Virus record (IMG/VR): IMGVR_UViG_2703718812_000015 | DNA length: 4,471 nucleotides | Reading direction: 5' to 3' (one strand) | Source of the DNA: a virus | Taxonomy: Duplodnaviria > Heunggongvirae > Uroviricota > Caudoviricetes | Shown: positions 1,362-1,477 of the stretch, in pieces | Numbering within the stretch: position 1 is the stretch's first letter | How the letters are laid out: each line of letters opens with the position of its first letter | Notes under the pieces: model-generated | What the model was told of the DNA's origin: nothing | The model's database searches: none | The model's input: only the letters and a program-made list of their open reading frames with translations | Translations under genes and position numbers: made by a program

Positions 1362-1391
1362 TTGACATCGTTAATACCTGTTGGTTAAAAA
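1362..1391 (+). promoter_or_regulatory. Candidate sigma70 promoter on the plus strand (antisense to the phage genes): TTGACA, 17-bp spacer, TG-extended TTAAAA
   Basis: Perfect -35 hexamer TTGACA at 1362-1367; 17 nt later an extended -10 (TG at 1382-1383, hexamer TTAAAA at 1385-1390, or TAAAAA at 1386-1391 with an 18-nt spacer). Sequence pattern only. Confidence 0.3.
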
Positions 1392-1429
1392 AGTGTCCTG
1401 CATGTTTTGCTTTGGATATAACGACATTT

Positions 1430-1477
1430 GCCGCCGGTTCTGGCTCCTTGTTTTCCCTGCCCCGGCGGCCTTTTTTT
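1430..1477 (+). terminator. GC-rich inverted repeat followed by T7 on the plus strand; atypical (large-loop) terminator-like element
   Basis: GCCGCCGG (1430-1437) is perfectly complementary to CCGGCGGC (1462-1469), followed by C and TTTTTTT (1471-1477). The 24-nt loop is larger than in canonical intrinsic terminators. On the minus strand the element is preceded rather than followed by the homopolymer run, so any terminator activity would act on plus-strand transcripts. Confidence 0.3.

Follow-up and report, generated by a model that had tools for sequence, protein, structure and literature searches.

The 4,471-nt stretch analysed here (the window; IMG/VR record IMGVR_UViG_2703718812_000015, Caudoviricetes) carries every one of its genes on the minus strand, where they make up the late region of a lambdoid prophage, in the order TerB pseudogene, DUF3927, STnc100-type leader, terminator, nanS-p, DUF1378, DUF826, holin and YdfR-family gene. 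Both genes that concern us most were delimited from their open reading frames (ORFs) and the annotation of identical loci: nanS-p, encoding a 9-O-acetyl sialic acid esterase of the SASA family (1483-3456, minus strand), and the DUF1378 gene (1153-1335, minus strand). Within the 147-nt spacer between them, the opposite strand holds a promoter-like sequence followed by a hairpin and a T-run (1362-1477). This unit is almost certainly the gene for EcOnc33, a small RNA (sRNA) of the Sp6/CP-933N-type lambdoid prophage of Escherichia coli O157:H7. As a whole, the best explanation, to which we give a probability of about 0.8, is that EcOnc33 is made from its own promoter, is bound by Hfq and acts in trans through a 5′ seed, with arcA as the lead target. 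The sRNA and nanS-p are convergent, the nanS-p stop codon lying 6 nt from the T-run, and the DUF1378 start codon is located, on the opposite strand, 27 nt upstream of the −35 element and 62 nt from the start of the sRNA.

The terminator hairpin (1430-1469, plus strand) is formed by the arms GCCGCCGG (1430-1437) and CCGGCGGC (1462-1469), an 8-bp stem of G and C only, which enclose a loop of 24 nt whose U-rich core, CUUGUUUUCCCU (1447-1458), is conserved. The T7 tract that follows (1471-1477, plus strand) would be the point of termination and presumably provides the Hfq-binding U tail. The original prediction, made by reading the letters without database searches, had placed the inverted repeat and the T-run at exactly these coordinates, and folding bears out its hairpin as energetically favoured: in 1397-1480, the hairpin is both the minimum free energy (MFE) and the centroid structure, at −23.7 kcal/mol (z = −2.5 to −2.7; one of 200 shuffles equally good), with an extra 3-bp inner helix that shrinks the loop to 14 nt. 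The hairpin by itself folds at −20.6 kcal/mol. A perfect 8-bp stem with a loop of at most 30 nt, followed by at least six Ts, arises in 0.25% of shuffles; the hairpin with its T-run is far beyond chance. None of 2000 shuffles combined a promoter with a suitably spaced terminator. The locus has what is expected of an Hfq-type sRNA, a Rho-independent terminator (8-bp G/C stem) with a U tail of at least six residues (U7). Likely contacts of Hfq would be this tail, the conserved loop rich in U and an AUUU that lies just upstream of the stem.

Upstream of the hairpin, the −35 hexamer TTGACA (1362-1367, plus strand) is a perfect consensus and occurs only once in the window, both strands counted. The putative −10 region (1385-1391, plus strand) can be read in two registers. 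With a 17-nt spacer (1368-1384) it is TTAAAA (1385-1390), with a TG extension at 1382-1383 but without the consensus A and T at positions 2 and 6, respectively; this was the register originally proposed (TGgTTAAAA, 1382-1390), and all of its elements are found as described at 1362-1390. With an 18-nt spacer it is TAAAAA (1386-1391), which matches the consensus at four of six positions including the key −11 A, has no TG extension and is the better −10 register. Either register predicts a start at about 1397-1399. A lenient promoter (TTGACA, 16-18 nt, at least 3/6 in the −10) is present in 65% of dinucleotide shuffles, so the promoter by itself is not significant. Transcription from this site, as a sigma-70 promoter whose −35 is perfect and whose A-rich −10 is weak, would start at about 1397-1399, oppose the phage late operon and end at the G/C hairpin and U7 (1430-1477). 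FNR or ArcA boxes in the promoter were considered, as GTTAA repeats are visible by eye at 1370 and 1384, and were rejected, the 14-bp spacing of these repeats being unlike the 11-bp ArcA repeat.

The identification with EcOnc33 comes from published RNA data. Positions 1300-1520 are 100% identical to the Sakai prophage Sp6, and coordinates convert as w = 1558668 − NC_002695.2 position, the window plus strand being the Sakai minus strand; the genome version of the published table is offset from NC_002695.2 by 141 nt, a value set by matching one printed read from cross-linking, ligation and sequencing of hybrids (CLASH) to the sequence. EcOnc33 is listed at chromosome positions 1557089-1557136, minus strand, in Sp6 (Tree et al., 2014, Table S2; PMC4104026), and this peak of Hfq cross-linking with cDNA analysis (Hfq-CRAC) converts to 1391-1438 on the window plus strand. 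It passes in five of five datasets, with an area under the curve of 2.6e7, comparable to the most abundant novel sRNAs, is flagged with a predicted Rho-independent terminator and gave a northern band of about 71 nt (PMC4104026). The Δhfq column of that table is blank for EcOnc33, a point that we count against our preferred explanation. The northern probe printed in the supplement of the same study, AAATGTCGTTATATCCAAAGCAAAACATGCAGGAC, is the exact reverse complement of 1395-1429, and therefore detected an RNA on the window plus strand.

This RNA is also associated with RNase E. An intramolecular EcOnc33 chimera, in which CCTGCCCCGGCGGCCTTT is joined to ATTTGCCGCCGGTTCTGG, is recorded by RNase E-CLASH with 99 in the count column (Waters et al., 2017, Table EV2; PMC5286369). 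It connects 1457-1474 with 1426-1443 and terminates in ...GGCCUUU, the signature of stem arms paired in vivo and of a 3′ end inside the U-tract. The 24-nt loop had at first been regarded as atypical for a terminator, a worry that these in vivo data answer, together with the conservation of the large U-rich loop in all variants (see below). The merged CLASH cluster of this chimera covers 1389-1478, slightly past both predicted ends. In the two of 18 parts of Table EV7 covered here, to which all our statements on that table refer, the EcOnc33 halves of two chimeras start at 1397-1399, 6-8 nt downstream of the −10. The probe, the CRAC peak, the CLASH starts and a match at 1397-1477 of the covariance model built from its variants together place the sRNA at 1397-1477 on the plus strand, with a predicted length of 76-81 nt. 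The plus-strand RNA of about 80 nt originally proposed, starting near 1397-1400 and ending near 1477, thus coincides within a few nucleotides with EcOnc33 on the identical Sakai Sp6 sequence; a perfect −35, a weak −10, a G/C hairpin and a T-run were enough for a sequence-only reading to recover a real Hfq-bound prophage sRNA.

EcOnc33 is therefore an already known RNA, catalogued in Tree et al. (2014), and its catalogue number is its only name in the publications on it (Tree et al., 2014, PMC4104026; Waters et al., 2017, PMC5286369). Full-text literature searches for "EcOnc33" and for the seed sequence turned up no paper. It is missing from RefSeq annotation and Rfam alike: no Rfam 15 covariance model matches at 1362-1477, and the window as a whole matches only STnc100 and, below threshold, asX2.

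The locus was found in 363 of 5426 complete E. coli genomes, where it is never annotated. Identity is at least 99% in 309 of these 363, and those sampled among the 309 are mostly O157:H7, with some O55:H7 and O103:H2; most genomes with the locus carry a single copy (median one place). A further 56 IMG/VR prophage-derived contigs contain it. BLAST in distant mode with 1300-1520 as query gave no match in 50,697 GenBank phage records, and an exact-pattern scan of the GTDB species representatives gave 0 matches, with no evidence from these searches for the locus outside E. coli strains with the prophage. Synteny is strict: 64 of 64 loci examined are flanked by DUF1378 on the upstream side and by the C-terminal end of the esterase on the downstream side, both encoded on the opposite strand and at distances that do not vary.

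Among 15 sequence variants, TTGACA is present in all, the variants with an 11-bp deletion rebuilding it from an upstream TTGAT/CAT repeat, and an A-rich −10, T(T)AAAA(A), follows after a conserved 17-18 nt. CUGCAU(G/U)UUUUGCU, the seed, hardly changes. The RNA varies in its middle, where it also carries insertions, and stays constant in the 8-bp stem, the loop core and the T-run. This constancy of stem and loop is partly imposed by the IMG/VR search pattern; variants derived from BLAST agree, but BLAST also selects for similarity. The stem is invariant except for one change from G-C to G-U, so that covariation is not assessable.

The 5′ seed region and arcA

The 5′ single-stranded seed region (1397-1420, plus strand; CCUGCAUGUUUUGCUUUGGAUAUA) supplies the EcOnc33 half of both CLASH chimeras with mRNAs. 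It is mostly unpaired in the MFE structure, with a weak 5-bp 5′ helix within 1397-1415, and its CUGCAU..UUUGCU motif is conserved in 14 of the 15 variants. The better documented of the two chimeras joins ECs5359 to EcOnc33 (read ATTTAGGTAGCAAACATGCAGACC followed by CCTGCATGTTTTGCTTTGGAT; five unique reads) and was recovered in both replicates and both orientations, with an Hfq site on the target and a false discovery rate of 2.7e-4 (Waters et al., 2017, Table EV7; PMC5286369). ECs5359 was verified to be arcA, and the target half covers the Shine-Dalgarno region and the start codon. The EcOnc33 half corresponds to 1397-1417 and cannot begin upstream of 1397; the junction is ambiguous by two bases because arcA continues with ...ACCCCG. 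The second chimera, between EcOnc33 and ECs0890, has two reads and −22.2 kcal/mol (PMC5286369). Its sRNA half corresponds to 1399-1420, the same 5′ region as in the arcA chimera. Judging from the encoded peptide LIDHLDTMAERAV, ECs0890 looks like dps.

The predicted pairing with arcA agrees with this chimera. The first 30 nt of EcOnc33 form a duplex of −19.0 kcal/mol with the arcA fragment, compared with −8.3 ± 2.6 kcal/mol for shuffled seeds, only one in 2000 of which was as good. The computed helices are CUGCAUG/CAUGCAG, which includes the AUG, UUUGCU/AGCAAA and UUGGAU/AUUUAG. Cofolding of the full RNA with arcA −40 to +20 gives a net gain of −14.1 kcal/mol and leaves the terminator intact. 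The predicted pairing is kept in most natural variants (−17.5 to −23.7 kcal/mol) and lost in one.

Several points weigh against giving arcA too large a role. The link rests on five chimeric reads in the parts of Table EV7 covered, and about 38 further EcOnc33 rows lie outside these parts. In addition, duplex energies over longer windows discriminate poorly, as the same arcA fragment gives −15 to −18 kcal/mol with the 5′ regions of the unrelated RNAs PasA and PasC.

We therefore grade these proposals separately. In a lysogen, late transcription is expected to be terminated far upstream, and EcOnc33 would act in trans, its unstructured 5′ 20-25 nt pairing with host mRNAs; action in trans through the 5′ seed seems to us reasonably likely. 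Pairing over the Shine-Dalgarno region and AUG of arcA would block translation initiation. arcA is the best-supported candidate target, and its standing as a physiological target is tentative, somewhat short of even odds. The fuller proposal, that EcOnc33 is a translational repressor of ArcA and at the same time an allele at a hypervariable slot for sRNAs, situated between nanS-p and the lysis cassette, is doubtful. If true, a cryptic prophage of the Sp6 type could retune host anaerobic physiology, beside the actions of AsxR on FnrS and HnrS on Hha, and EcOnc33 would be, after these two, the third case of a prophage sRNA directed against a host global regulator. ArcA, a global regulator of redox and respiration, governs the aerobic-to-microaerobic switch that enterohaemorrhagic E. 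coli (EHEC) meets in the gut.

The esterase/lysis slot and comparable RNAs

PasA and PasC of the enteropathogenic E. coli strain E2348/69 occupy the same slot between esterase and lysis genes as EcOnc33 and, like it, are convergent with these genes. With lengths of 85 and 79 nt, respectively, they are bound by Hfq and provided with an intrinsic terminator and U-run (Pearl Mizrahi et al., 2021, Table S6, PMC8550237; Zhu, Shabalina and Storz, 2026, preprint). Like EcOnc33, both carry an equivalently placed perfect TTGACA and an A-rich −10, and their 5′ end begins (C)CUGC. As described for PasA-PasD2, an RNA of the STnc100/PasD type is found beyond the esterase gene, at a distance of about 2.1 kb. 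In a MAFFT alignment, the TTGACA of EcOnc33 falls on those of PasA, PasC, the unit in the corresponding slot of Sp5 and the Sp12 slot region that holds EcOnc51, and TTGACA, the 17-18-nt spacing, the A-rich −10 and the CUGC start all align in these five slots, although elements this short could be convergent.

Nevertheless, EcOnc33 as a member of a PasA/PasC family finds no support in either local alignment or the covariance model, and this assignment was rejected. Smith-Waterman alignments of EcOnc33 with PasA and PasC were no better than shuffles (z = 1.95 and −0.01, respectively), and the covariance model built from EcOnc33 variants (R2) scored PasA at 6.6 bits (E = 8.4) and PasC at 11.5 bits (E = 0.63). 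The terminator stems and seeds of PasA and PasC differ from those of EcOnc33, the published EHEC homologues of PasA are EcOnc51/52 and not EcOnc33 (PMC8550237), and Rfam holds no family for either PasA or PasC.

In contrast to these two RNAs, the slot unit of Sakai Sp5, the Stx2 prophage, is detected by the same model (positions 5586-5652 of locus L003, minus strand; 22.7 bits, E = 0.0016). This unit is again convergent, lies between a nanS-p remnant and DUF1378 and has a TTGACA, an A-rich −10 and a hairpin, ACCGCCAGCG/CGCUGGCGGU, followed by U7. It is a mosaic, with an EcOnc33-like promoter region and a PasC-like terminator stem core. The terminator module of EcOnc33 (stem, U-rich loop core and T-run) is found with an unrelated 5′ half at 160-249 of locus L014 (plus strand, 38 bits), in an unannotated stretch of a 69-kb plasmid of E. 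coli O158:H23 (NZ_CP076711.1). These arrangements suggest modular exchange within a shared slot, which is to be taken as a lead and not as proof of membership; the Sp5 mosaic hints at common descent through such exchange. In the fuller proposal graded above as doubtful, the slot would be a conserved frame of promoter and terminator with exchangeable seeds, represented by EcOnc33, PasA, PasC, EcOnc51/52 and the Sp5 mosaic. EcOnc33, which was omitted from the recent survey of those RNAs, is now placed in the PasA/PasC slot, and the slot looks like a site of sRNA cassette turnover.

Two further groups of prophage sRNAs invite comparison. AsxR and AgvB (Rfam RF02703; Tree et al., 2014) are, like EcOnc33, prophage-encoded, bound by Hfq, short and convergent with the late operon, and they likewise carry a variable 5′ end on a conserved terminator module. 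Unlike EcOnc33, they are 51-60 nt long with a specific shared 3′ region of 42 nt, and they lie directly downstream of the PR′ leader, abutting STnc100, whereas EcOnc33 lies downstream of nanS-p. They sponge the core sRNAs FnrS and GcvB, while the two EcOnc33 chimeras in the parts of Table EV7 covered are with mRNAs. The Rfam AsxR model has no match in the window at E ≤ 1, and the same model finds the AsxR of Sp5 at 88 bits. HnrS (EcOnc10/11/12; Poudyal et al., 2026, PMC13502914) is a short Hfq-associated sRNA of a prophage late region from the same catalogue as EcOnc33, and it represses the global regulator hha by pairing with the ribosome-binding site, the mechanism proposed here for EcOnc33 on arcA. 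It differs from EcOnc33 in its sequence, in its position in the prophage and in being multicopy.

Alternative explanations

In phage lambda, the cII coding sequence is overlapped at its 3′ end by the OOP RNA, a convergent antisense RNA of about 77 nt that is transcribed from a promoter of its own, ends at an intrinsic terminator and works through RNase III. OOP serves as model for the most probable of the alternatives, a cis-antisense role of EcOnc33 on the late mRNA, which would be compatible with action in trans. After induction, the late transcript antiterminated by Q would read through the locus and form a duplex of about 80 bp with the sRNA in the nanS-p/DUF1378 spacer; RNase III cleavage or transcriptional interference could then uncouple expression of the esterase from the lysis cassette. 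EcOnc33 is perfectly complementary to late mRNA from the interval bounded by the nanS-p stop (1483) and the DUF1378 start (1335), and the position and antisense orientation are strictly kept in 64 of 64 loci. [quoted passage not shown]

However, EcOnc33 overlaps intergenic RNA only. Whereas OOP overlaps a coding sequence on the opposite strand, EcOnc33 finishes 6 nt short of the nanS-p stop codon and begins at a distance of 62 nt from the start codon of DUF1378, so that it reaches neither the nanS-p coding sequence nor the DUF1378 ribosome-binding site. The parts of Table EV7 covered contain no chimeras with the flanking late genes ECs1527 or ECs1528, though the cultures were uninduced. Furthermore, the RNA is abundant on Hfq in uninduced lysogens, whose late transcript is expected to end at the 3569-3551 terminator. 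A cis-antisense role is thus possible but unsupported, and we regard it as unlikely. The RNA is antisense in its position relative to the late polycistronic mRNA, as originally predicted; as to its action, the CLASH chimeras are the only functional data and point to targets in trans (arcA and dps).

A second alternative concerns the origin of the RNA: EcOnc33 might be a processed fragment, cut by RNase E in the A-rich 1387-1392 from a longer plus-strand antisense transcript started upstream, in which case TTGACA and the −10 would not be its promoter. Several observations that count against our preferred explanation bear on this point. The edge of the CLASH cluster, at 1389, lies 8 nt upstream of the predicted start; a CLASH read in the EcOnc51 of the Sp12 slot covers the aligned promoter spacer and −10; and the 5′ end of PasA, as stated by Zhu et al. 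(2026), may come from cleavage. The promoter motif alone is within chance expectation, and a generic scanner listed neither the promoter nor the terminator of 1362-1477, because of the −10 mismatches in the 17-nt register and a loop longer than 8 nt; the weak −10 remains a point against a promoter. The length of 76-81 nt, obtained from a start at 1397-1399 and an end in the U-tract at 1474-1477, also exceeds the published band of about 71 nt (PMC4104026).

Against processing, the −35 is perfect in every variant and is even regenerated after the 11-bp deletion, and the −35/−10 spacing is held at 17-18 nt. The chimeric halves in the covered parts of Table EV7 begin at 1397-1399, at the distance expected from the −10, and the generic scanner found no candidate for an upstream promoter on the plus strand. 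EcOnc33 is therefore probably a primary transcript from the TTGACA promoter, and its origin by processing is improbable.

The remaining two alternatives can be set aside more briefly. The hairpin could serve the minus strand by stabilising the nanS-p mRNA at its 3′ end or by terminating it, with the promoter-like site on the plus strand a coincidence: it folds in the minus-strand RNA too, 13 nt downstream of the nanS-p stop codon, but there an A7 precedes the stem and no U-run follows, so that no intrinsic terminator exists on that strand, and the RNA is assigned to the plus strand by the northern probe as printed, by CRAC and by the reads from CLASH, which makes this reading very improbable. 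Hardly credible at all is a small protein encoded by the plus strand, as originally judged, since the ORFs that begin at 1381, 1412 and 1428 and the internal ATG at 1402 have no Shine-Dalgarno sequence, and these ORFs are antisense to nanS-p and pass the terminator without a stop inside the RNA.

Other features of the window

The STnc100 leader RNA lies at 3597-3763 on the minus strand (Rfam match of 101.6 bits, E = 3.9e-22) and is followed on that strand by a strong terminator hairpin with T8 (3551-3569); the sub-threshold asX2 match of Rfam covers 3505-3570. The STnc100 found here is a late-promoter leader sRNA related to PasD, EcOnc04, EcOnc13 and EcOnc27. Rfam detects no AsxR/AgvB-like partner beside it, while the STnc100 of Sp5 abuts a convergent AsxR. 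A further terminator-like hairpin, ACCCGTCGCCAGGCGGGT followed by T7, is located at 4436-4453 (minus strand), about 46 nt downstream of the Q antiterminator gene. EvrS/Esr023 is described as a 154-nt sRNA between z1789 and the esterase gene z1793 of CP-933N (PMC11774850), and it maps either to this hairpin or to the unit of STnc100 and its terminator.

Two exact repeats occur in the window. A direct repeat of 61 bp (27-87 and 285-345, at a spacing of 258 bp) lies in the region of the YdfR-family gene. In many related genomes the alignment begins only at position 27 or 86, and in some there are two annotated YdfR genes; the 61-bp repeat is therefore a variable internal duplication. Within nanS-p, a 36-bp tandem duplication (3228-3299) gives rise to the repeated peptide DVTTPVVVPGTG near the N-terminus. 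On the plus strand, antisense inside the YdfR-family gene, 110-145 form a terminator-like hairpin of 10 pairs with a T-run, and none of the EcOnc RNAs that Tree et al. (2014, Table S2) list for Sp6 matches it. Finally, the TerB-family gene upstream of the leader RNA (approximately 3934-4300, minus strand) is a pseudogene with an internal stop, and is annotated as such in identical loci.

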